Source of the DNA: a phage
Sequence record: PZ583743.1
Length of the DNA stretch: 64,000 nt
Strand: one strand, 5' to 3'
The notes below the pieces were generated by a model. That model saw only the letters and a program-made list of their open reading frames with translations. It was not told the DNA's origin and ran no database searches. Shown piece after piece: positions 710 through 50,877 of the stretch. Position 1 is the stretch's first letter; each line of letters begins with the position of its first letter. Position numbers and translations under genes: made by a program.

Positions 710-2974
710 TCATAATTTACAGGATGAACAATCTTCAGCTTTTGGAGTTTCTATTTCATAATCATCAGTACCAGAACCGTCACGTGTATTATGATAATAG
801 AAATTTTTTCCGCCAAAATACCAAAAGTACAAAAGGTCATCAATCATTACAGACATTGGAACCTTTCCTTTTGGAAAAATCTGCGGGTCATAATATGTAT
901 TCGCTGAAGCTGATTGACATACCCATTTCAGCATAATAGCTACCTGCGTAAGATAAGGTTTATTACCTTTCTTAGCTAATTTCCACGTATAATCATAGAG
1001 GTCTATGTTATGCTCAATATTGGGCACGACTTGATTAAAGGAACCCTCTTTTGATTCTTTAACAGAGACTGGTCCGCGTGGAGGCTCGATACCGTTTGTA
1101 CTGTTAGAAACTTGGGAAGATGACTCACATGGCATAAGTGCTGATAATGTGCTATTACGGATGCCAAAGAGCTTAAGGTCTTCCCGCAGCGACGACCAGT
1201 CACAAACGTATTTTGGAGCTGCGATTTGGTCAATCTTTTTATTGTACCAGTCGATAGGTAATTCGCCTCGAGACCAACGAGTGTCTGAATAATACTCGCA
1301 AGGTCCTTTTTCTTTGGCGAGCTTAATGGATGCTTTAATGAGTCCATACTGTAATCTCTCAAATAGTTCATGTGTTAAATCGTTAGCATCTTCATAAGAA
1401 GCAAAGTTACTTGCTAGCCAAGCTGCATAGTTAGTAACACCTACACCAAGATTTCGACGCTTTTTAGCTTTTTCTGCTTCAGGAACTGGATATCCTTGGT
1501 AATCCAAAAGATTATCAAGAGCGCGAACTTGAACTTCTGCTAATTCATTAATTTTATCTTGGTCTTGCCAATCGAAGTTATCCAACACAAATGCAGATAA
1601 CGTGCACAATCCAATTTCGGCATCAGGGCTATTCACATCATTTGTTGGAATAGCAATTTCACAGCACAAGTTACTCTGACGAATAGGTGCCTTTTCACGA
1701 ATAAACGGAGTATAGTTATTCGTATTATCAATGAACTGTACATAAATCCTTGCTGTTCCTGATCGTTCAGTCATGAGCAATTCAAACAGTTCACGGGCTT
1801 TAATACGCTTTTTACGAATATTAGGGTCTTTTTCTGCGGCTTCGTATAATTCGCGGAAACGGTCTTGGTCTTTAAAATAAGAATAATAAAGTTCGCCACC
1901 CATTTCATGCGGACTAAACAAAGTAATGTAATCGTTCTTTCCGAATCGTTCCATCATCAAATCATTCAGCTGGACGCCATAATCCATATGACGAATACGG
2001 TTTTCTTCTACGCCTTTGTTATTTTTCAAAACGAGAAGATTTTCAACTTCCAAATGCCAAATAGGATAATAAGCAGTAGCAGCGCCGCCACGAATTCCGC
2101 CTTGTGAACATGATTTAACAGCAGTCTGAAAATGTTTCCAAAAAGGAATAACGCCAGTATGACGCACTTCACCTGTGCCAATCTTAGAACCTTCGGCACG
2201 AATCATACCAACATTAATGCCGATTCCAGCTCGTTTAGAAATATACTCAACAATTGAAGCAGAAGCCTTATTGATAGACTTCAGCGAATCACCTGCTTCA
2301 ATAACAACGCATGAACTAAACTGTCGAGTTGGAGTACGACATCCAGCCATAATAGGAGTTGGCAGTGAAATCTGTCGAGTAGATACTGCTTCATAAAAAC
2401 GAATAACATGTTTTAATCTGTCAACAGGTTCATCTTGATGCAATGCCATTCCAATAGTCATAAATGCAAACTGTGGAGTTTCATAAATTTGACCAGTGGT
2501 TTTATCTTTAACGAGATATTTTTCTTTTAATTGCATCGCCCCGGAATAAGTAAATTCCATATCCCGCTCGTGCTTAATTTTTGATTCTAAAAATGTAATT
2601 TCTTCTGCAGAATATTTTGACAACAATTCAGGGTCGTATTTACCTTCATTTACACAGTAAGAAATATGGTCAATAAATGAACGGGGCTCATACTGCCCGT
2701 AAACATGTTTACGAAGAGCAAACATTAAACAGCGCGCAGCTACATATTGATAATCAGGCTCTTCAACTGAAATAGAATTCGCAGCAGCCTTAATTACAAT
2801 GGTTTGAATGTCATCAGTGGTCATTCCATCACGGAGATATGATTTAATATTTTCATATAATTCATAAGGATCTACAGATGTTCCTTCAGCTGCCCAAGAT
2901 AAAACTTTAATAATTTTTTGCGGGTCAAAGCTTTGAGAAACACCACTACTTTTGATAACATTAATTAATTGCAT
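710..2974 (-). CDS. nrdA: Ribonucleotide reductase large subunit NrdA
   Basis: 754 aa, same length as T4 NrdA; class Ia RNR sequence ending CSSCKL; between td and nrdB. Confidence 0.95.
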   Translation of the reverse strand: MQLINVIKSSGVSQSFDPQKIIKVLSWAAEGTSVDPYELYENIKSYLRDGMTTDDIQTIVIKAAANSISVEEPDYQYVAARCLMFALRKHVYGQYEPRSFIDHISYCVNEGKYDPELLSKYSAEEITFLESKIKHERDMEFTYSGAMQLKEKYLVKDKTTGQIYETPQFAFMTIGMALHQDEPVDRLKHVIRFYEAVSTRQISLPTPIMAGCRTPTRQFSSCVVIEAGDSLKSINKASASIVEYISKRAGIGINVGMIRAEGSKIGTGEVRHTGVIPFWKHFQTAVKSCSQGGIRGGAATAYYPIWHLEVENLLVLKNNKGVEENRIRHMDYGVQLNDLMMERFGKNDYITLFSPHEMGGELYYSYFKDQDRFRELYEAAEKDPNIRKKRIKARELFELLMTERSGTARIYVQFIDNTNNYTPFIREKAPIRQSNLCCEIAIPTNDVNSPDAEIGLCTLSAFVLDNFDWQDQDKINELAEVQVRALDNLLDYQGYPVPEAEKAKKRRNLGVGVTNYAAWLASNFASYEDANDLTHELFERLQYGLIKASIKLAKEKGPCEYYSDTRWSRGELPIDWYNKKIDQIAAPKYVCDWSSLREDLKLFGIRNSTLSALMPCESSSQVSNSTNGIEPPRGPVSVKESKEGSFNQVVPNIEHNIDLYDYTWKLAKKGNKPYLTQVAIMLKWVCQSASANTYYDPQIFPKGKVPMSVMIDDLLYFWYFGGKNFYYHNTRDGSGTDDYEIETPKAEDCSSCKL

Positions 2975-3291
2975 AAGTCCTCAACTTGAAAATCGTCTTT
3001 AAACAATCGGTTAACTATATGAGCTATTATATCACCATGACACGGCTTTGGTTTACATGTGCATCCTAGCCTCATTCCACGTAAAGGCTCTAAATGTGCT
3101 TTAGTTATTTCTCCGGATTTAATTCGACGTATAAAATCTTTTTTGAATAATTCAATGGCAGCCTCCCGGCTGCCAGCATCTTTACCGACGTAATTTCCCC
3201 AAAATGTACCACGGTGAATATTAACATCAAAGTCGGATTTATATTTATTCACTACTTGGCATAGACGGCCCGCGCGGTGATAATTCGTCAT
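2965..3291 (-). CDS. Conserved hypothetical protein (T4 nrdA.1 position), Cys-rich [11 protein letters not shown] motif
   Basis: 108-aa ORF between td and nrdA. Confidence 0.6.
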
Positions 3292-3531: not shown

Positions 3532-4392
3532 TTACACCGCCATTTTTCCTTTAATAGGAGGGTGAGATACATAGTTGTTAAGAACAAAATTATGCGGCTT
3601 TGCGAATTGACTCAACCAAAATACCTGTGATTCTGTGTCCCATTCATCAAATTCATCTGGAAATTTTAATTGTAATTCGCATAAATCCATAGGTTCACGA
3701 CGCAAAATTTCTTTACATTGTTCTATGTGATTCATATAGATATGAGTATTACCACCAGAAAATATCAAATCTCCTGGAATAAGATTACACATCTTAGCTA
3801 CAATATGAACTAATGCAGCATATGATGCAATGTTGAATGGCAAGCCCAAGAACACGTCAACACTTCTTTGATACCACTGCAAATCCAAATAGCCATTACG
3901 CACATTAAACTGATAGAACATATGACAAGGCGGTAATGCCATTTGCTTGAGTTCAGCTGGATTCCATGCTGAAACAATTTGACGTCTATCATTTGGCAGT
4001 TTTTTAATACGATCAACAACTTCTATAATTTGGTCTACACCGCCAAAATCACGCCATTGTTTTCCATAAATTGGACCAAGTTCACCGCTATGATATCCTA
4101 AATCTTTTGCTTGATTTTCGTAATTTTCATCCCAGACTGTTTTGCCTTGAATTAATGAATCATGCTGAATTAATCGTAAATCATTTACGTTAGTACTTCC
4201 TGATAAAAACCATATTAGCTCAGCAATGCAAGCTTTCCAGGCGAGCTTCTTAGTTGTTACTGCAGGAAAACCTTTACTTAAATCCCAGCGTAATTTAGTA
4301 CCGAACAGAGCAATTGTTCCTGTGCCTGTTCGGTCATCAGTTTCATAGCCATTTTCAAAAATGTCTTTAATTAAATCTTGGTATTGTTTCAT
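3532..4392 (-). CDS. td: Thymidylate synthase, uninterrupted (no group I intron)
   Basis: 286 aa continuous ORF with ThyA motifs (LPPCH, FNIASYA); T4 Td is 286 aa. Confidence 0.95.
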   Translation of the reverse strand: MKQYQDLIKDIFENGYETDDRTGTGTIALFGTKLRWDLSKGFPAVTTKKLAWKACIAELIWFLSGSTNVNDLRLIQHDSLIQGKTVWDENYENQAKDLGYHSGELGPIYGKQWRDFGGVDQIIEVVDRIKKLPNDRRQIVSAWNPAELKQMALPPCHMFYQFNVRNGYLDLQWYQRSVDVFLGLPFNIASYAALVHIVAKMCNLIPGDLIFSGGNTHIYMNHIEQCKEILRREPMDLCELQLKFPDEFDEWDTESQVFWLSQFAKPHNFVLNNYVSHPPIKGKMAV

Positions 4393-4437
4393 TTAGTACC
4401 TTATATAAATTATAATACATTTTATGAAGCTAAATAA

Positions 4438-4785
4438 TCAATACGGTTTAGCGTCAAATTTTCTTTCAATTTCAGGCGTAAAATACAATTCTTTACCACG
4501 CTTGGAAAAGCGACCAATAATATGATAATTATTCTCATCAAACGTGATATTGCCGATATCCATAGCTTTCAACCAAATATCGATATTTCTGTCAAGCTTT
4601 ATATCAAAATTCCAATACGGAGAACTATTACCGAAAATACTACAAGCGGATTCAGTGAAACAACTGCTATAAATCTTGTCTTTAGGAACTACTAATTGAT
4701 AGACGCCTTTAATAAACTGAGGACCCTGCCATTTTGGTTGTTTCACGTCTTTTTCTAATAGAATAGGGTAATAATTAAAATTCAT
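4438..4785 (-). CDS. Hypothetical protein encoded in a frd-td insertion
   Basis: ORF track 4438..4797 (119 aa, GTG start); likely ATG start at 4785 giving 115 aa; no recognisable motif. Confidence 0.5.
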   Translation of the reverse strand: MNFNYYPILLEKDVKQPKWQGPQFIKGVYQLVVPKDKIYSSCFTESACSIFGNSSPYWNFDIKLDRNIDIWLKAMDIGNITFDENNYHIIGRFSKRGKELYFTPEIERKFDAKPY

Positions 4786-16071: not shown

Positions 16072-19020
16072 ATGGCTACTTTAAAACAAATACAATTTAA
16101 AAGAAGCAAAACTGCAGGTCAACTTCCTGCCGCTTCAGTATTAGCCGAAGGTGAATTGGCTATTAATTTAAAAGATAAAACAATTTTCACAAAAGATGAC
16201 TCAGGCAATGTTATAGAATTAGGTTTAAAATATGGAGGAACAATTGATGGTTCTTTAACTGTTAATGGAAATATAATTGGAAATTTAACAGGTAACGCTG
16301 CAACTGCAACGAAATTAAAAACAGCACGAAAAATTAATGGTATATCCTTTGATGGGTCAAAAGATATCACGCTAACTCCATCTGACATAAATGTCAATAG
16401 CACAACATTTATAAAAAATAATGGCGAATTACCTGTTGATGCTAATTTAGATGAGTATGGGCCTGTTGAAGAATATCTTGGAGTTTGGTCGAAAGCAACT
16501 TCAACCAACGCTCAACCAGCAAATAAATTTCCAGAACAAAATGCTGTAGGTGTGCTAGAAGTATTTGTGGCCGGTCAATTTGCTGGTACTCAGAGATATA
16601 CAACTAGATACGGAAATGTTTATATTCGTTCCTTGACTGCTACATGGAACGGAGTAAATGGTCCGTGGAGTGTGTGGCGAAATATTCAATCCGGTACTCG
16701 TCCACTGTCAACAACAATTGATCTTAATGATCTAGGAGGCGCTGAACACTTTGGTTTGTGGCGAAATAGTTCAAATTCCATTGCTACCTTTGACAGAAAT
16801 TTCCCAGAAGAAGGATCGTCAGCTCAAGGACTTTTAGAAGTATATGAAGGTGGAAACTATTCTCGCACACAGAGATATACGACCAGATTTGGTGTTGTTT
16901 ATACTCGCTGTCTTACTGCTGCGTGGGATGCTTCTGCGCCTAAATGGGGACCGTGGCAACAAGTCGGTAATGTCACACCGGCGACTTTCTATGACGGAAA
17001 CCTGAATGATTTTAAAACTCCTGGGTTATATAATATTTTAGGCACTGATGCCGTTATTAATTGTCCTACAGGCGAAGGTTTACCAGCCGTTATTGTTGGT
17101 TTGCTGGAAGTTAAACAACGTGCTTCTGGCGGTGCTATTTTCCAAAAATTTACTACTGCCGGAACGGGTGAAACTACTCGCGATCGTATTTTTGAGCGCG
17201 CATATACCGGCGGTGCGTGGGGTGCATGGAACGAAGTATATACATCTTATTCTCTGCCAATTACTTTGGGTATGGGTGGTATTAAAGCTCAATTAGCGGA
17301 GTTAGATTGGCAAACCTTTGATTTTGTCCCTGGTAGTATGTTTAGCGTTCCTTTGAACAAAATAAAGAACATGCCAGCTAATATGGATTGGGGTACGATT
17401 GACGGAAACTTAATTATGTTTTCTGTTGGTCCTAGCGAGCACACCAGCACAGGACGTACTGTTCAGGTTTGGCGTGGTACTGTATCCCAGACAAACTACC
17501 GTTATTTTGTCGTTCGTGTATTCGGTAATTCAGGAAATAGAACTTGCACAGTTCGTCGCGTTGTTCTTGAAGATGGTCGCCATTCTTGGACGGCACAACA
17601 AGATTTTAGGGGCGCGGTTAATCTTTACGGTGCTACATATCTTCGTTCAAACAATAAATTAACATTAGATCCGAGTGCATATATTCAAGCACCAGCAAGC
17701 GGTTCTGGTTCTAATACTTACGCAAATCAGAATACTACTATTGCGCCATTATATCAGGCCATTGACGATTCAAATAAAAACCAGTTTGCTCCTATTGTAA
17801 AACAGAAAAACACTGTAACAAATATTACTATGGCTTCTGGTATGGATATTGCTAGTTCAGAATATCGTATCATTGCTCAAGGTGATTTATCCGCTACTGG
17901 AACTACAGCTAATGAATTAGCTACATGGCGTTTCTTGCCGTCTGGCCGATTCATGTCACAAAGCCGAGTTTATGCTGGCGCAGCATTCCTTAATACCGAT
18001 GGTAATATTGCTGGTTCAATCTGGAAGAAATATAACAATGCGACAAATTTAGATGCTGCCTTGAATACTCGCGTAGGTAAAGGCGGTGATACGATGACAG
18101 GTCGGTTAACAATCAATGCACCTAATGATTCTATCGTATTATCAACAACTGCTAGTAATTCTTTGCATATTCGCGGTGACATAGACGGGACTGGTAACTG
18201 GTATATTGGCAAGGGTGGTGCTGATAATTCGCTAGCATTTTATAGCTATGCTACTCAGGCGGCAGTACATATCACAAACAATGGTGAGATTTCGCTAAAT
18301 CCACAAAATATCGCAATGGTTAACGTTAACCGCGATCGTGTACACATTAACGGTTCTGGATGGATTGCTAGACAACCGGGTGATTGGGGCAACCAATGGC
18401 GAGTAGAAGCTCCATTATTCGTTGATCATGGTTATGTTTCACAGGATTGTTATTATCCTATTCTTAAAGCAAGAAGCGTTATAACCAATCAAGGATATAG
18501 CACCGCTGTTGACTTTGGTATGCGTCGTATTCCATCACAGTGGGGGCAAGCAATCATTCGTGTCGGATCCACGGAGGCTTCTCCTGATGCTGGACACCCA
18601 CAAGCTGTGTTTGAATTCCATCATGATGGATTCTTTTATACACCAGGAAATGGTAGCTTTAGCGATGTGTATATTCGTTCTGACTCCCGTCTCAAGATTA
18701 ATAAAGAAGAATTAGAATATGGAGCGGTCGAAAAAGTTTGCCGACTGAAAGTTTATATTTACGATAAAGTTAAGTCTATTAAAGACCGTAGTGTTATTAA
18801 ACGTGAAGTTGGTATTATTGCTCAGGACCTTGAAAAGGAATTACCGGAAGCTGTATCTAAAGTTGAAGTTGATGGATCTGATGTTCTGACAATTTCTAAC
18901 TCTGCTGTGAATGCTCTTTTAATTAAGGCTATTCAGGAAATGAGTGAAGAAATTAAAGAATTGAAAACGCCTCTCTTTACTAAAATTGTTCGCAAAATTA
19001 GTAAATATTTTAAATTCTAA
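16072..19020 (+). CDS. 37: Long tail fibre distal subunit gp37 with C-terminal intramolecular-chaperone-like domain
   Basis: 982 aa; internal triplicated module (LEVxxxG...QRYTTRxG.VY.R.LTA.W); C-terminal about 110 aa (SDSRLKINKEELEYGAV...GIIAQDLEKELPEAV...) resemble self-cleaving chaperone domains. Confidence 0.9.
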   Translation: MATLKQIQFKRSKTAGQLPAASVLAEGELAINLKDKTIFTKDDSGNVIELGLKYGGTIDGSLTVNGNIIGNLTGNAATATKLKTARKINGISFDGSKDITLTPSDINVNSTTFIKNNGELPVDANLDEYGPVEEYLGVWSKATSTNAQPANKFPEQNAVGVLEVFVAGQFAGTQRYTTRYGNVYIRSLTATWNGVNGPWSVWRNIQSGTRPLSTTIDLNDLGGAEHFGLWRNSSNSIATFDRNFPEEGSSAQGLLEVYEGGNYSRTQRYTTRFGVVYTRCLTAAWDASAPKWGPWQQVGNVTPATFYDGNLNDFKTPGLYNILGTDAVINCPTGEGLPAVIVGLLEVKQRASGGAIFQKFTTAGTGETTRDRIFERAYTGGAWGAWNEVYTSYSLPITLGMGGIKAQLAELDWQTFDFVPGSMFSVPLNKIKNMPANMDWGTIDGNLIMFSVGPSEHTSTGRTVQVWRGTVSQTNYRYFVVRVFGNSGNRTCTVRRVVLEDGRHSWTAQQDFRGAVNLYGATYLRSNNKLTLDPSAYIQAPASGSGSNTYANQNTTIAPLYQAIDDSNKNQFAPIVKQKNTVTNITMASGMDIASSEYRIIAQGDLSATGTTANELATWRFLPSGRFMSQSRVYAGAAFLNTDGNIAGSIWKKYNNATNLDAALNTRVGKGGDTMTGRLTINAPNDSIVLSTTASNSLHIRGDIDGTGNWYIGKGGADNSLAFYSYATQAAVHITNNGEISLNPQNIAMVNVNRDRVHINGSGWIARQPGDWGNQWRVEAPLFVDHGYVSQDCYYPILKARSVITNQGYSTAVDFGMRRIPSQWGQAIIRVGSTEASPDAGHPQAVFEFHHDGFFYTPGNGSFSDVYIRSDSRLKINKEELEYGAVEKVCRLKVYIYDKVKSIKDRSVIKREVGIIAQDLEKELPEAVSKVEVDGSDVLTISNSAVNALLIKAIQEMSEEIKELKTPLFTKIVRKISKYFKF

Positions 19021-44764: not shown

Positions 44765-46104
<1,340 letters not shown>

Positions 46105-46203: not shown

Positions 46204-46404
46204 ATGGCACAAAAATTAATGGCACTTGTTAATGCCATCAAAGGTAATAAGAAACGTATAGCTTTTACTATTTCTGCTATGGTAGGAATTTTACTCTGGA
46301 ACTTTATTTTATCACCAATTGCAATTGCGCATGGTGTTAATATTCCAGTAGTTACTCTTGATACATTCGTAGATCTAGCATTTGCTTTAGTTGGGTTAAT
46401 TTAA
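46204..46404 (+). CDS. Small membrane protein (66 aa), plus strand, convergent with gene 61
   Basis: AGGAGG SD 4 nt upstream of ATG; two hydrophobic segments; ATAAATA box 19 nt upstream; stop overlaps gene 61 stop. Confidence 0.5.
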   Translation: MAQKLMALVNAIKGNKKRIAFTISAMVGILLWNFILSPIAIAHGVNIPVVTLDTFVDLAFALVGLI

Positions 46405-47429
46405 ATCTTGGCATATTTAGATAACCGCATTTTAGCCATTAACCCCTGGGCAATATTATTTTTCATATATTCCATAATTTGTTCAGGGGTTGCACCTTCC
46501 TTTCTAATCATATCATTAACATCTTTTGATTTCCAGGGAGATTTATCCCAAAACATAACCCTTTCTCCTGCATCAACTAATTTAGTCATTCGCTTGATAG
46601 TGTCAGGGTGACGAGGTTCATTATCTAAAACCCACACTCGTCTATCTTTAAATGGAACAACTTCTAGGTCTAATTGACCACCTGTAATAGCTATACCATT
46701 TTCAATAAAAAGCGAATCTATAGGTCCTTCTAGAACATATACATCACCATCTTTGACTCGTTCGACTCCATAGATTTTTGTTGCCTCAGGATAAGCTTTG
46801 ATGGTGATATATTTTTGAGGAGCATCTTTCTTTAATGCACGTCCTTGAAAAGACTCAGCTTTTCCGTTAGCATTATAAATTGGAATAACAAGACGAGGCT
46901 CAGGTGTTTCCTTTTTATATGTTCCTGGAGCTATACTATTAACTAATTTAGGCCATTCAGTTGTAAACCAAAGATATTTCCATTTATCCTTTGGAATACA
47001 ACGAGCTTTTACATATTTTATAATTGGATGGTCTTCCGCCAATTTATCTAATCTGATGCATGACGGAAGAGATTTAATTATTTTCTTCTCAGGTTGTTTA
47101 GGAAGTTCTTTAGGTTTTTCTACTGGACGACTTTTACCTTTTTCTTTTCTTATTTCAAAGATATACTCACGATATAAATCAGGTTCAAACTCCTTTAAAT
47201 ATATTCCGATTGGTGCATGATAGTTACAGTTATAACAATGAATATTTCCTTCATTATTATCGCCATAATACCATCCACGGGCTTTATTTTGATCGGTTTT
47301 TGAATCTCCACAAACGGGACATCTAAACCGTAATTTAAAAGTTGAACTATTATTTACTTGTGCGAATTTAGGTAAATGAGCCAATGCACGGTATGCAAAC
47401 TCATTATCAATCCAAGGTATTGATGACAT
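46401..47429 (-). CDS. 61: DNA primase gp61
   Basis: 342 aa, same length as T4 gp61; N-terminal zinc-binding CPVCGDS...CYNC and Toprim region. Confidence 0.9.
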   Translation of the reverse strand: MSSIPWIDNEFAYRALAHLPKFAQVNNSSTFKLRFRCPVCGDSKTDQNKARGWYYGDNNEGNIHCYNCNYHAPIGIYLKEFEPDLYREYIFEIRKEKGKSRPVEKPKELPKQPEKKIIKSLPSCIRLDKLAEDHPIIKYVKARCIPKDKWKYLWFTTEWPKLVNSIAPGTYKKETPEPRLVIPIYNANGKAESFQGRALKKDAPQKYITIKAYPEATKIYGVERVKDGDVYVLEGPIDSLFIENGIAITGGQLDLEVVPFKDRRVWVLDNEPRHPDTIKRMTKLVDAGERVMFWDKSPWKSKDVNDMIRKEGATPEQIMEYMKNNIAQGLMAKMRLSKYAKI

Positions 47430-47431
47430 TT

Positions 47432-47596
47432 TTACTCTTCTTTTTCTTTAGATTCCTCTTTTTTCTTTTTAGGAATCTGTTCAGGACCTTTATTTACTAC
47501 AGCACCTGACGTTGTTCCAGTGGAGATATTTTCAGGATTACCACCTGAATCTCCAGCTACCATATCTTCTTTAATAAATTCTTTATATGTTTTCAT
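47432..47596 (-). CDS. Small hypothetical protein (T4 61.1 position, 54 aa)
   Basis: MKTYKEFIKEDMVAGDSGGNPENI...; below ORF-track cut-off. Confidence 0.45.
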   Translation of the reverse strand: MKTYKEFIKEDMVAGDSGGNPENISTGTTSGAVVNKGPEQIPKKKKEESKEKEE

Positions 47597-47597
47597 A

Positions 47598-48224
47598 TTA
47601 ACCTCTATTCATAAAAGCATTAAAAATTTGGTCATCAATAGAAACATCTACTTTAGACTGTTTTTCTGATGGTAATTCATATCCACATATTACAATTTTG
47701 TGATCAATATCAAAATACACAGAAGCAATATGATTAATGATGTTTTCAGTAAAGTCTAAATCAACATCAATATCTTTTTGACCACAGCCCAAAGGATAAA
47801 TAATGCGAGTAATTCGATTATCTTTAACAAAGATTCCACCGACATACTCTGTGCTGCGTTTAAAGTCTACACGCCAACGAAATGAAAAATATTCAGGCTC
47901 TTTATGAGCTCTGCTCATAGGACACAACGAGTAACTAGAATAAGAGATGTCAAATCCTACGCCTTCAATATGAGCCAAAGTATCATGATTAAACCAATTA
48001 TAATCGTACGCCAAATCCATTAGATTATAATATGTAAAAGGCACCGGATTAACGTCATTAATCACAAGCATGTAATTAGCAACTGCTATAATTTCATTGT
48101 TTTTAACGAATACAAACCGTGATTGATGCGAATGACCTGGACCCGCGTTTTCACGATTAATGATATAACACTGGGCACCTTTATATTTGTATGTATCTTT
48201 GCACTTGTGCATTTGATAGAGCAT
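47598..48224 (-). CDS. Hypothetical protein (T4 61.2 position; possibly the anti-DarT factor AdfA family)
   Basis: 208 aa; position and size match T4 61.2; family link is from memory. Confidence 0.5.
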   Translation of the reverse strand: MLYQMHKCKDTYKYKGAQCYIINRENAGPGHSHQSRFVFVKNNEIIAVANYMLVINDVNPVPFTYYNLMDLAYDYNWFNHDTLAHIEGVGFDISYSSYSLCPMSRAHKEPEYFSFRWRVDFKRSTEYVGGIFVKDNRITRIIYPLGCGQKDIDVDLDFTENIINHIASVYFDIDHKIVICGYELPSEKQSKVDVSIDDQIFNAFMNRG

Positions 48225-48517
48225 TATTCACCTACCACTTCAGCGATGATATTTTTATTATTAAAGTTTTTATCGCAATACAGAACATAATTATACTGCA
48301 TTACACCACCAGATTTAAGTTGTTTTTGCACTTTAGCTTTCATTTCAGGACGATCGCGCTCAACGATATTCATAATATCCGCTTCAATTTGAGTTTCAAC
48401 TTCAGTCTGATCTGCAGTCATAGACCATTCGCACAAATCTTTGTCATAACCCGCCATAGCAGGCTGAGCAGCGCAAGAAGATAAAGCAAAAATTGCAGCA
48501 AAGATAAATTTTTTCAT
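48224..48517 (-). CDS. sp: Probable spackle periplasmic protein
   Basis: 97 aa with N-terminal signal peptide MKKFIFAAIFALSSCAAQPAMA; position of T4 sp (61.3). Confidence 0.6.
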   Translation of the reverse strand: MKKFIFAAIFALSSCAAQPAMAGYDKDLCEWSMTADQTEVETQIEADIMNIVERDRPEMKAKVQKQLKSGGVMQYNYVLYCDKNFNNKNIIAEVVGE

Positions 48518-48545
48518 GATAATCTCCTCAGTAGTTTATGTTTAT

Positions 48546-48575
48546 ATAGTATCTCAATTTCCAATAAAAGTAAAC
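48546..48575 (-). promoter_or_regulatory. T4-type early promoter for sp
   Basis: -35 GTTTAC at 48570..48575, 18 nt, -10 TACTAT. Confidence 0.55.
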
Positions 48576-48577
48576 AG

Positions 48578-48835
48578 TTATTTTAAAACTTCTGCATAAT
48601 CACATGTTACAAACTGTTTCTCTAACTTGGCGATTTTACGAAAGTATCTTTTGCATTGACGAATCTGTCGCTTTGTAGGGCGCACAGCAAACTTAATAAA
48701 TTCCACTCGACCAAATGGAGGGCTTTCTTCTGCCGGAATATCTAATACTAATTCCCACGTATCTGCAATAAGTGCTTTGAATTGAGTATTTTTCCTGACA
48801 TTATACGGAGTAGGTTTAAATAAAACGATATGCAT
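48578..48835 (-). CDS. Hypothetical basic protein (T4 61.4 position)
   Basis: ORF track 48578..48877; GAGGA SD precedes ATG at 48835 just after dmd stop, giving 85 aa. Confidence 0.5.
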   Translation of the reverse strand: MHIVLFKPTPYNVRKNTQFKALIADTWELVLDIPAEESPPFGRVEFIKFAVRPTKRQIRQCKRYFRKIAKLEKQFVTCDYAEVLK

Positions 48836-48836
48836 A

Positions 48837-49019
48837 TTATCCTCGGCAATCCACTTCACATACCTTCTTGTCATCAATGAAAGCTTTAACTAGTGCTTTA
48901 TTAACTTCAGCATATTGAGTAGTAGCCCATTGAACGTCATCTTTCATCATTGTGGTCTCTTTAGTAAACATGCTTTCATTCTTAAACCACCCCATAAAAA
49001 CTACCTTTACCAATTCCAT
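48837..49019 (-). CDS. dmd: Dmd antitoxin-like protein
   Basis: 60 aa; MELVKVVFMGWFKNESMFTKE... matches my recollection of T4 Dmd; own early promoter. Confidence 0.7.
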   Translation of the reverse strand: MELVKVVFMGWFKNESMFTKETTMMKDDVQWATTQYAEVNKALVKAFIDDKKVCEVDCRG

Positions 49020-49048
49020 AACAATCTCCTCATTTAACCAACAAGACT

Positions 49049-49078
49049 ACTATACCATAGTCTTGTCAGCTTGTAAAC
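49049..49078 (-). promoter_or_regulatory. T4-type early promoter for dmd
   Basis: -35 GTTTAC at 49073..49078, 18 nt, -10 TATAGT. Confidence 0.55.
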
Positions 49079-50505
49079 TAAAATTTTAATTCATTCGCCA
49101 AAGCATCTAACTGAGCTCGAGTGGATTCATTTCTTTGATAGCGATTCTGCTCAGCTTGTATCTGTTGTGAACCTGCTACCTCACTCACTTCAGTTGGAGT
49201 AGAATCTTGTTCAATTTCTACCCATTTCTGATTTCCTTTTTGAACACCCATCAAAAACTTATTCCATTTATTCTTATCACCATATCGTGATTTGATTTGC
49301 TTAATAAGTTGTTGTTCAGCAGCTGCTAACTCCTCGGTTTCAATGACCGCAAGCATAAAATCAGCTGTTGCTGGAAGACCGGCAGATTCTGCAATATCGC
49401 TCATGTTAACATCAGAAGAATCCCAAGCTTGTTTACCAACCTGTGCTGCAGTCCAAAGAACAGTTTCGGTTTCAACAGCAAGAGCACGCAATTCCTCTGC
49501 AATGGCTTTAACAGTTGTGTAACTATTTTCTGAATAAACTCTGATGCGGCAAGATTTACAAATACCTAGATAGTCGACAATAATGATTGTTGGAACAAAA
49601 TTTTTCTTGAGCTTCAATTCATTCAAGAGAGACCTGAATGTGTTAGCATCTGCCCCACCAGTAGGATACTGTTTAACGATTAAACGACCGAGAGTAGATT
49701 TCTCACGCCATTTTTCCATTTTTCCTTTATACTCAGCGTAAGAAATATGCCCATCATCAATATCATCAAGAGAAACATCAAGCATATTAGCATCAATACG
49801 TTTAGCGCAGACTTCTTCTGCCATTTCCATGGAAATGTAAAGAACATTATGTCCGAGCTGTAAATAATCTGCTGCTAATGAACACAATCCTAATGACTTA
49901 CCAACGTTAACGCCAGCCATTAAAACGTTCAGTGTTCCAGTCTCAGCTCCGCCTTTAGTAATTTTATTTAGAATTTTGAGTTTAAATGGAACCTTACGAG
50001 CTTTATTCATATAAGATAGCCAACGTGCTTCATAGTCATCCATCCAATCATGACCAACGTAACTATCAAATGAAATTGATAATGCTTGGCGCATGATGTC
50101 AGGAATAGCACCAACATCCGGCATTTTCTTATTTCGTTTTTCCGGAGGAAGCTCAGCATTGGTTTGAATTTCAATTATTTTAGACGTAGCATTAAACATC
50201 GCCCTTTGCTGAACATATTTTTCTGTTTCTTTTACTAACCAGCTGTGGTCTTCCGGAGAATCGGTTAGTTTTGAAATAAGTGTTTTTACACCAGAATATT
50301 CTGTTTCAGTAAATGAACTATTTTCTAATGCAACATTTAACGCATTAATAGATGGAACGCTATGATACTCATTAACATGTGATTTAATTAATTTGAATGT
50401 ATTTTTAGCTGGACCACTTTCAAAATATTCTGAATCCATATATGGCCAAACTTTTGAAAAATAAGCTTGATCAAATATGAGATGAGAAAGAATAATTTCT
50501 ACCAC
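49078..50505 (-). CDS. 41: Replicative DNA helicase gp41 (DnaB-like)
   Basis: 475 aa, same length as T4 gp41; Walker A GVNVGKS; GTG start. Confidence 0.95.
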   Translation of the reverse strand: MVEIILSHLIFDQAYFSKVWPYMDSEYFESGPAKNTFKLIKSHVNEYHSVPSINALNVALENSSFTETEYSGVKTLISKLTDSPEDHSWLVKETEKYVQQRAMFNATSKIIEIQTNAELPPEKRNKKMPDVGAIPDIMRQALSISFDSYVGHDWMDDYEARWLSYMNKARKVPFKLKILNKITKGGAETGTLNVLMAGVNVGKSLGLCSLAADYLQLGHNVLYISMEMAEEVCAKRIDANMLDVSLDDIDDGHISYAEYKGKMEKWREKSTLGRLIVKQYPTGGADANTFRSLLNELKLKKNFVPTIIIVDYLGICKSCRIRVYSENSYTTVKAIAEELRALAVETETVLWTAAQVGKQAWDSSDVNMSDIAESAGLPATADFMLAVIETEELAAAEQQLIKQIKSRYGDKNKWNKFLMGVQKGNQKWVEIEQDSTPTEVSEVAGSQQIQAEQNRYQRNESTRAQLDALANELKF

Positions 50506-50514
50506 ACTTACTCC

Positions 50515-50877
50515 TTAAAAGAATTTAAATTTTTTCTTTGACCTTTTATTAAATGCATCTTGTAGTTGCATTGTAATACATTTTTCTACATGAGGAGCTA
50601 ACTCAGCTTTTCTTTCTTGGTCAAGAACAGCAAAGTCCATTACGACTTTTCCATCAACCCAATCTAATTTTGTCACATACACAATGTGTGTAGAACCATC
50701 TTCTAGTTTAATGACAATCTCCTGGATAACATTTTCCATGGCAGATTTAATTATCTTAAGAGATTCATTAAAAAGACGTTCTTTTCTTTCTTCTTCCCCC
50801 TCCGAAGAGGGGGATTCGTCGATAATTTCTAGATCTAAATCTAAATCATCTTTATTCATTAAATTCTTCCATATCAC
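50515..50877 (-). CDS. 40: Probable gp40
   Basis: 120-aa ORF between uvsX and 41; start overlaps uvsX 3' end. Confidence 0.55.
   Translation of the reverse strand: MIWKNLMNKDDLDLDLEIIDESPSSEGEEERKERLFNESLKIIKSAMENVIQEIVIKLEDGSTHIVYVTKLDWVDGKVVMDFAVLDQERKAELAPHVEKCITMQLQDAFNKRSKKKFKFF

Follow-up and report, generated by a model that had tools for sequence, protein, structure and literature searches.

Gene content between the primase and helicase genes

We analyzed a stretch of phage DNA of 64,000 nucleotides (sequence record PZ583743.1, one strand, 5' to 3'), which we refer to as the window, and focused on the five small genes at positions 47,432 to 49,019, located between the genes for the DNA primase (gene 61) and the replicative helicase (gene 41). 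All five genes were found on the minus strand where a first-pass annotation of the same DNA, made from the letters alone, had placed them between the two replication genes. The genes correspond to the open reading frames (ORFs) for gp61.1, AdfA, Spackle, TifA, and Dmd in phage T4, and are listed here with the number of residues that are identical to the T4 protein.

47432-47596, minus strand: gene 61.1, an ORF of 54 amino acids, 52/54 identical to T4 gp61.1; phrog_1823
47598-48224, minus strand: adfA (gene 61.2), an ORF of 208 amino acids for the predicted anti-DarT factor A, 199/208 identical to T4 gp61.2
48224-48517, minus strand: sp (gene 61.3), an ORF for a precursor of 97 amino acids, the predicted periplasmic Spackle, 93/97 identical to T4 Sp
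48578-48835, minus strand: tifA (gene 61.4), an ORF of 85 amino acids for the predicted ToxN inhibitor, 83/85 identical to T4 gp61.4
48837-49019, minus strand: dmd (gene 61.5), an ORF of 60 amino acids for the predicted antitoxin mimic, 59/60 identical to T4 Dmd
46401-47429, minus strand, flank: gene 61, DNA primase of 342 amino acids, named from the T4 annotation, 336/342 identical to T4 gp61
49078-50505, minus strand, flank: gene 41, replicative helicase of 475 amino acids, 472/475 identical to T4 gp41; Pfam DnaB_C match with an E value of 2.3e-17

The phage is a Tequatrovirus. The DNA from position 47300 to 49200 was 99.8% identical to that of Escherichia phages ES21 and ES19 and 99.7% identical to that of Yersinia phage ZN18, and a nucleotide search with the same segment matched 540 phage records, nearly all of which were Tequatrovirus. 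The gene order in the T4 reference record, 61, 61.1, 61.2, sp, 61.4, dmd, and 41, was also the order in the window. The first-pass annotation had proposed a T4 counterpart for each ORF except that of 54 amino acids, and homology of all five to T4 proteins was confirmed at 96% to 98% amino acid sequence identity, with nine substitutions relative to T4 in AdfA, four in Sp (two of which are in the mature part), two each in TifA and gp61.1, and a single one in Dmd. Four of the five proteins had full-length Pfam matches above the threshold, to the families AdfA, T4_Spackle, DUF7279, and Dmd, and the PHROGs assignments were consistent with these. No evidence contradicted the gene identities of the five ORFs.

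We interpret the region as the T4-type early gene cluster of Tequatrovirus, with the layout 41 / dmd-tifA / sp-adfA-61.1 / 61, in which Dmd, TifA, and AdfA would neutralize the toxins of toxin-antitoxin (TA) systems and Spackle would block the gp5 lysozyme. We place the probability of this interpretation at roughly 0.9. Gene identity, gene order, key residues, and promoter motifs were observed in the window itself, and the biochemical activities of the alleles in this phage are those expected by analogy with orthologs in T4 and RB69 (96% to 98% identity). The genes, their functions, and the concept of an "anti-TA island" are already known, having been published for T4 between 2012 and 2024.

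Transcription units and promoters

Two sites with a GTTTAC box were located in the gaps upstream of dmd and sp.

49049..49077, minus strand: early promoter of dmd-tifA, with TTTACA, a spacer of 17 nucleotides, and a TG-extended TATAGT
48546..48575, minus strand: promoter-like site upstream of sp, read from the sequence, with a GTTTAC(T) -35 box, a spacer of 17 nucleotides, and TACTAT

The dmd promoter sits in the gap of 58 nucleotides between gene 41 and dmd, where it matched 10/12 consensus positions in addition to the TG and represented the top promoter-like site of our scan. T4 has the identical sequence at this site, and RB69 keeps the GTTTAC box. The site upstream of sp, located in the gap of 60 nucleotides between tifA and sp, matched 8/12 positions of the sigma-70 consensus, which is under the threshold of the scan, but both the GTTTAC box and the spacing are kept in T4 and RB69, and we consider it a putative promoter. 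Because the generic sigma-70 scan as a whole was no better than chance (19 sites found versus 18.0 expected), the promoter calls rest on this conservation and on the published T4 work, which attributes the transcription of dmd and 61.4 to an early promoter ahead of dmd (PMC9391042).

At the remaining junctions, the genes were separated by gaps of 1 to 2 nucleotides or overlapped by 1 nucleotide: tifA begins after a gap of 1 nucleotide from the dmd stop codon, the start of adfA overlaps the sp stop codon by 1 nucleotide, and 61.1 ends 2 nucleotides upstream of the start of gene 61. The first-pass annotation had described each gene as having its own early promoter or being tightly coupled, and the two GTTTAC-box sites together with these junctions fit that description. 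A terminator scan of positions 46300 to 50600 found none. The genes are thus organized as two leftward, tightly coupled units that start from two early promoters, dmd-tifA and sp-adfA-61.1-61, the first of which agrees with the statement on the early promoter in T4 (PMC9391042). Time-resolved omics data from T4 (PMC9697503 supplement) place 61.2, sp, 61.4, and dmd in the early class for both transcript and protein; for 61.1, the RNA was likewise assigned to the early class and the protein was left unclassified.

Dmd and TifA

Residues 1 to 60 of the Dmd protein aligned with positions 1 to 60 of the 60 positions in the Pfam profile PF17587, with an E value of 1.8e-45, and the protein also matched the PDB chain 5hy3_B, "Antitoxin Dmd" (E = 9.6e-37), as expected from the earlier description of the ORF as Dmd-like. 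The sole difference from T4 Dmd was the substitution I22T. To judge from the title of a reference and the name of chain B in PDB entry 5hy3, T4 Dmd is an antitoxin mimic that acts on RnlA and LsoA, and by analogy the protein encoded in the window would bind and block the RNases RnlA and LsoA.

TifA is a basic protein that matched the Pfam family DUF7279 (PF23945) with an E value of 2.2e-20, which is above the cut-off, and that differed from T4 gp61.4 by V69A and I83V. No relative was identified in PDB by sequence search. The reading frame is open upstream to a TTG codon at position 48877, which would yield a protein of 99 amino acids overlapping dmd (48578-48877, minus strand). The form of 85 amino acids starts at an ATG codon at position 48835 that is preceded by a GAGGA ribosome-binding site, and this is the form that has been annotated and studied in T4.

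The gp61.4 protein, a ToxN inhibitor, was renamed TifA in 2022, and the region was termed the "anti-TA island" in the same paper (Srikant, Guegler and Laub; PMC9391042). T4 escaped toxIN by amplification of the dmd-tifA locus, tifA by itself restored plating in a manner that required translation, and disruption of tifA lowered plating on chromosomal toxIN about 100-fold; furthermore, ToxN co-precipitated with TifA in T4-infected cells, and the TifA homologs of T2, T4, T6, and RB69 have been shown to inhibit ToxN and to restore plating when the host carries toxIN (PMC9391042). The mechanism was published in 2023: TifA binds to ToxN and to RNA, so that ToxN becomes trapped in an inactive ribonucleoprotein, chiefly on 16S rRNA (PMC10853763). 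The toxin inhibitor that the first-pass annotation mentioned near dmd in T4, and hesitated to assign to the ORF of 85 amino acids at the 61.4 position, is this very ORF (PMC9391042). The same annotation had singled it out as the least characterized gene in the group, which is not borne out, given the genetics, the in vivo co-precipitation with ToxN, and the mechanistic study that are available for TifA (PMC9391042, PMC10853763). The gene without characterization in the island is 61.1 rather than 61.4.

The potency of TifA is set by the interface residue 41, with Phe (as in T4) being weak and Ser or His being stronger, and K55, R56, and R59 are the residues that were mutated jointly in the study of RNA binding by RB69 TifA (PMC10853763). 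F41 and the central positive cluster K55, R56, and R59, required for RNA binding, are all kept in the window. Its TifA should behave like that of T4, and would bind both ToxN and RNA and hold ToxN inactive on abundant cellular RNA.

AdfA and Spackle

The first-pass annotation had placed the ORF of 208 amino acids at the 61.2 position of T4 and linked its family to escape from DarTG, and both suggestions were supported by the profile match and the literature (PMC11257639). Residues 1 to 208 of the protein aligned with positions 1 to 211 of the 211 positions in the Pfam profile PF23813 (AdfA), with an E value of 1.9e-134; a sequence search of PDB found no relative. His165 in the AdfA proteins of the window and T4 falls in the same alignment column as Arg164 in RB69. 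AdfA of RB69 gains the ability to bind to DarT1 through the substitution R164H, and T4-type alleles naturally contain His (PMC11257639). The AdfA protein examined here would accordingly be of the type that binds the DNA ADP-ribosyltransferase DarT1, if the T4 and RB69 results are transferable.

The secreted protein of 97 amino acids was also identified as Spackle, in agreement with its earlier assignment. It matched the Pfam family PF25676 (T4_Spackle; E = 3.3e-45) and over its full length PDB entry 6x6o (E = 4.3e-60), with the mature chain of 7cn6 aligned from residue 23. It keeps the signal peptide of 22 residues as well as Cys29 and Cys81. Mature Spackle is a helical protein of 75 amino acids with a disulfide bond between Cys29 and Cys81, which functions as a periplasmic inhibitor of the lysozyme domain of the tail protein gp5 and thereby in superinfection exclusion (PMC7677548). 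By analogy, the protein in the window is predicted to be exported to the periplasm, where it would inhibit the gp5 lysozyme domain of superinfecting T-even phages.

Several points weigh against the functional part of our interpretation. The alleles of AdfA, TifA, Sp, and Dmd in this phage carry substitutions relative to T4, and their activities are those expected from the orthologs. Deletion of adfA from T4 had no phenotype on DarTG1, and the main counter-defense has been attributed to AdfN (gp30.3) (PMC11257639). Single-copy native tifA of T4 overcomes chromosomal toxIN and not plasmid-borne toxIN (PMC9391042), and TifA in the window carries the same weak F41 allele. Finally, the label "island" suits only three of the five genes.

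An anti-defense island or a hyperplastic slot

The first-pass annotation had interpreted the entire group as an anti-defense island. This holds for dmd, tifA, and adfA, three documented counter-defense families within 1.4 kb that belong to the published "anti-TA island", and does not hold for the other two genes: sp targets the gp5 protein of the incoming phage, and 61.1 is without a known anti-defense role. The cluster is thus mixed, with documented counter-defense genes accounting for three of the five members.

It has to be considered whether the interval between genes 41 and 61 is an ordinary hyperplastic slot of the T4-like phages, which gathers unrelated small early genes in the space between conserved replication genes and in which the anti-TA genes have come together by the chance of insertion site. 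The gene content of the interval varies widely among relatives, as this explanation would have it: the interval in RB69 contains eleven genes, among them four ORFs without an assigned function and the superinfection immunity genes imm and imm.1, the interval in Aeromonas phage 31.2 contains only the 61.1 homolog, and T2 is without adfA (PMC11257639). Both Spackle and Imm are moreover directed at other phages rather than at host defenses. However, dmd and tifA are adjacent and co-operonic in T2, T4, T6, and RB69 (PMC9391042), and anti-defense islands are defined by just this kind of pattern, here three independent anti-TA genes in 1.4 kb. We consider it rather doubtful that chance insertion is the explanation, and the two views are in any case largely compatible.

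Gene 61.1 differs from the variable part of the interval. Homologs were identified with tblastn in 1494 phage records, including phages of Escherichia, Klebsiella, Acinetobacter, Aeromonas, and Vibrio, and the gene was located directly upstream of the primase gene wherever this was checked, namely in RB69, Aeromonas phage 31.2, Vibrio phage QD01, and Klebsiella phage CPRSB. Since its position next to the primase gene has been kept across these phages, also in those that do not have the island, 61.1 is a conserved, primase-linked gene and not variable island cargo.

Similarity of gp61.1 to the major capsid protein gp23

The gp61.1 protein consists of an N-terminus that resembles a capsid targeting sequence, MKTYKEFIKE, a conserved I-K-E/D junction, a core similar to the N-fist of gp23, and a tail rich in Lys and Glu. 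The databases name its homologs "major capsid domain-containing protein", and we therefore compared the protein with gp23 of T4. No match was obtained to any family in Pfam or NCBIfam, permissive thresholds included, and the Pfam model Gp23 (PF07068) gave no match to gp61.1 at E values up to 10, so that membership in the HK97-fold capsid proteins is not indicated by these models. In a BLASTP comparison, residues 2 to 38 of gp61.1 were 43% identical to residues 57 to 93 of T4 gp23 (E = 1e-8). A profile built from 17 homologs of 61.1 and searched against 2129 six-frame ORFs recovered gp23 with an E value of 1.1e-7, the runner-up having an E value of 6, and gp23 was also the top match in a PDB-wide search with gp61.1 (E = 0.0085). 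An hhalign comparison of 23 short-form homologs with 11 gp23 N-termini gave a probability of 97.2% and an E value of 2.9e-11 over residues 57 to 101 of gp23. The similarity is local, with residues 2 to 46 of gp61.1 being the part homologous to gp23 57-101.

With the 61.1 family profile as the query, a set of 1.84 billion representative proteins yielded matches of the 61.1 type only and none of capsid length at E <= 0.001, and for this reason the kinship with gp23 emerges solely from searches restricted to the T4 ORFs or to PDB and from profile-profile comparisons. Judged from these alignments, gp61.1 is an ancient and widely conserved paralog of residues 57 to 101 of gp23. Our literature search found no account of a kinship of gp61.1 with gp23 or with targeting sequences, although an older remark on 61.1 may exist.

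The gp23 segment from 57 to 101 spans the last part of the propeptide, the site of cleavage by gp21 (L-T-E65/A66), and the N-fist of 25 residues in mature gp23*. In the unexpanded prohead, this segment is found on the inside, close to the scaffold (PMC9958956, PMC9546572). The cleavage site L-T-E65/A66 aligned exactly with I-K-E10/D11 in gp61.1, and the first residue of the mature gp23* chains in PDB fell on D11. Among 66 family members, the Glu at the junction was present in all and a hydrophobic residue at position -3 in 61.

The 61.1 family formed 51 clusters at 50% identity with two architectures, and no protein of capsid length was found among the 51 representatives. The short form, to which the T4 and window proteins belong, often begins with MK[TS]F.EF, also in distant phages. 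The long form contains a conserved N-terminal domain of about 100 amino acids, which had no Pfam match and was absent from T4 and the window.

In the RB69 record (4318-4784, minus strand), ORF032c was found to represent the domain at the N-terminus of the long form, with a profile E value of 1.3e-19. The RB69 long form is present as two overlapping ORFs in different frames, ORF032c and 61.1, which could be explained by recoding, by a frameshift, or by an error in sequencing. At positions 2600 to 3130 in the record of Klebsiella phage CPRSB, the 61.1 homolog is annotated as "major capsid protein". In this record, several short ORFs stand in place of intact genes for the primase, the helicase, and the long form of 61.1, which suggests a frameshift-rich assembly.

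A kinship of gp61.1 with serine proteases, based on a GDSGG motif, was also considered and rejected, as the protein contains only 54 amino acids and the motif corresponds to GDHGY in gp23.

Possible roles of gp61.1

The first ten residues of gp61.1 are identical in eight positions to the capsid targeting sequence MKTYQEFIAE of the T4 internal proteins IPII and IPIII, and the (L/I)-x-E processing motif is common to both sequences. When the window and about 103 kb of T4 were searched for the targeting-sequence pattern, only gp61.1, IPII, and IPIII were recovered. According to a review of T4 head assembly, residues 4 and 7 of the sequence serve in targeting and residues 8 and 10 in processing (PMC9026906), and all four are kept in gp61.1.

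These features suggest that gp61.1 may be targeted to the prohead by its first ten residues and cut by gp21 after Glu10, and that the basic product of 44 residues, consisting of the N-fist-like core and the tail, may be packaged in the capsid and possibly injected like IPI-III. A cut after Glu10 would leave the N-terminal peptide DMVAGDSGGNPENIS(I/T)GTTSGAVVNK, starting from Asp11. Several of the observations above are consistent with this scenario, including the exact alignment of the gp23 cleavage site with the I-K-E10/D11 junction, the retention of the hydrophobic-x-Glu motif before the core in most family members, the MK[TS]F.EF start of many distant short-form homologs, and the orientation of the homologous gp23 segment, which faces the scaffold inside the prohead before expansion (PMC9546572). 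The early RNA class of 61.1 is not decisive in this respect, because the genes for IPI-III are likewise early RNA genes, with the combination "early RNA, late protein".

There are also arguments against packaging. The late promoter TATAAATA was not found within the island in a scan of the island, gp61.1 is not among the proteins classified in time-resolved T4 proteomics (PMC9697503 supplement), and the prohead core components listed in the literature do not include it (PMC9958956). Furthermore, the long-form homologs carry the distinct domain of about 100 amino acids in place of the targeting sequence, and the hydrophobic-x-Glu motif could have been kept for another reason. We prefer the packaged, gp21-processed form as a reading of 61.1, but only tentatively, and would not be surprised if it proved incorrect.

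Another scenario is that gp61.1 remains outside the capsid as a soluble mimic of the N-terminal segment of gp23, acting either as an early decoy or antagonist of a host factor or defense sensor, or as a regulator of primase expression. The homology to gp23 57-101, which is well supported, and the early class of the 61.1 RNA (PMC9697503 supplement) would both agree with such a role. So would the location of 61.1 among counter-defense genes, its translational coupling to gene 61, and the retention of its place immediately ahead of the primase gene in phages of hosts ranging from Escherichia to Vibrio. However, one would expect a trigger-like decoy to switch a sensor on, not to block it. We also know of no defense system that senses gp23 57-101, and the Gol peptide that activates Lit presumably lies just downstream, at about residues 93 to 122 of gp23; we count both points against the mimic, which we regard as unlikely.

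If gp61.1 is instead packaged, it would be a candidate injected effector encoded beside the anti-TA genes, and the 61.1 family, with its 51 clusters and its short and long forms, would represent a conserved capsid-associated module of the Straboviridae. The kinship with gp23, together with the N-terminus that resembles a targeting sequence, provides a concrete hypothesis for one of the approximately 100 T4 genes of unknown function. The other alleles in the cluster are nearly identical to those in T4, and the confirmation of the island closes the question that was raised about it without adding to the literature.

Neighboring genes

Two ORFs were noted on the other side of gene 61. The first, an ORF of 186 amino acids (45544-46104), is located between dam and gene 61, and its stop codon overlaps the start of dam by one base. 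It had sub-threshold Pfam matches to the DpnII and BanI endonucleases. The full ORF was present in T2 and about 160 other phages, T4 is without about 550 base pairs at this site, and vB_EcoM_F1 and PD112 keep a C-terminal remnant of 28 amino acids. An ORF with an endonuclease fold that is translationally coupled to dam could constitute a phage-borne pair similar to a restriction-modification system.

The second, a hydrophobic ORF of 66 amino acids (46204-46404), runs on the plus strand toward gene 61, and the ends of the two genes overlap by 4 nucleotides. It is preceded by a strong AAGGAGG ribosome-binding site, belongs to phrog_2024, and was 54% identical to ORF029w in RB69. The same ORF is present, although not annotated, in the T4 record (17738-17938).

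Comparison with known systems

For gp61.1, the closest parallels in N-terminal sequence are IPII and IPIII of T4. Beyond the N-terminus, these proteins show no similarity to gp61.1, which contains only 54 amino acids, is not a reported virion protein, and is encoded without a local late promoter.

For the cluster as a whole, the genes dmd, tifA, sp, adfA, and 61.1 also occur in RB69, a Mosigvirus, where their relative order is unchanged and GTTTAC early-promoter boxes are present, but RB69 has six extra genes, imm, imm.1, ORF032c, ORF033c, ORF040c, and ORF041c. The TifA protein in RB69 has 70 amino acids with His41 and is a stronger inhibitor (PMC10853763), whereas the one in the window has 85 amino acids with Phe41. 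Similarly, AdfA in RB69 is a non-neutralizing allele with Arg164 (PMC11257639), as compared with His165 in the window, and 61.1 in RB69 is of the long form, split into ORF032c and an ORF of 92 amino acids.

The "anti-TA island" of T4 (PMC9391042) has the same gene order, gene lengths, promoter placement, and key residues as the cluster in the window, from which it differs by point substitutions only. Just outside the island the two phages diverge, in that the gene with a restriction-endonuclease fold between dam and gene 61 is present here and has been lost in T4.

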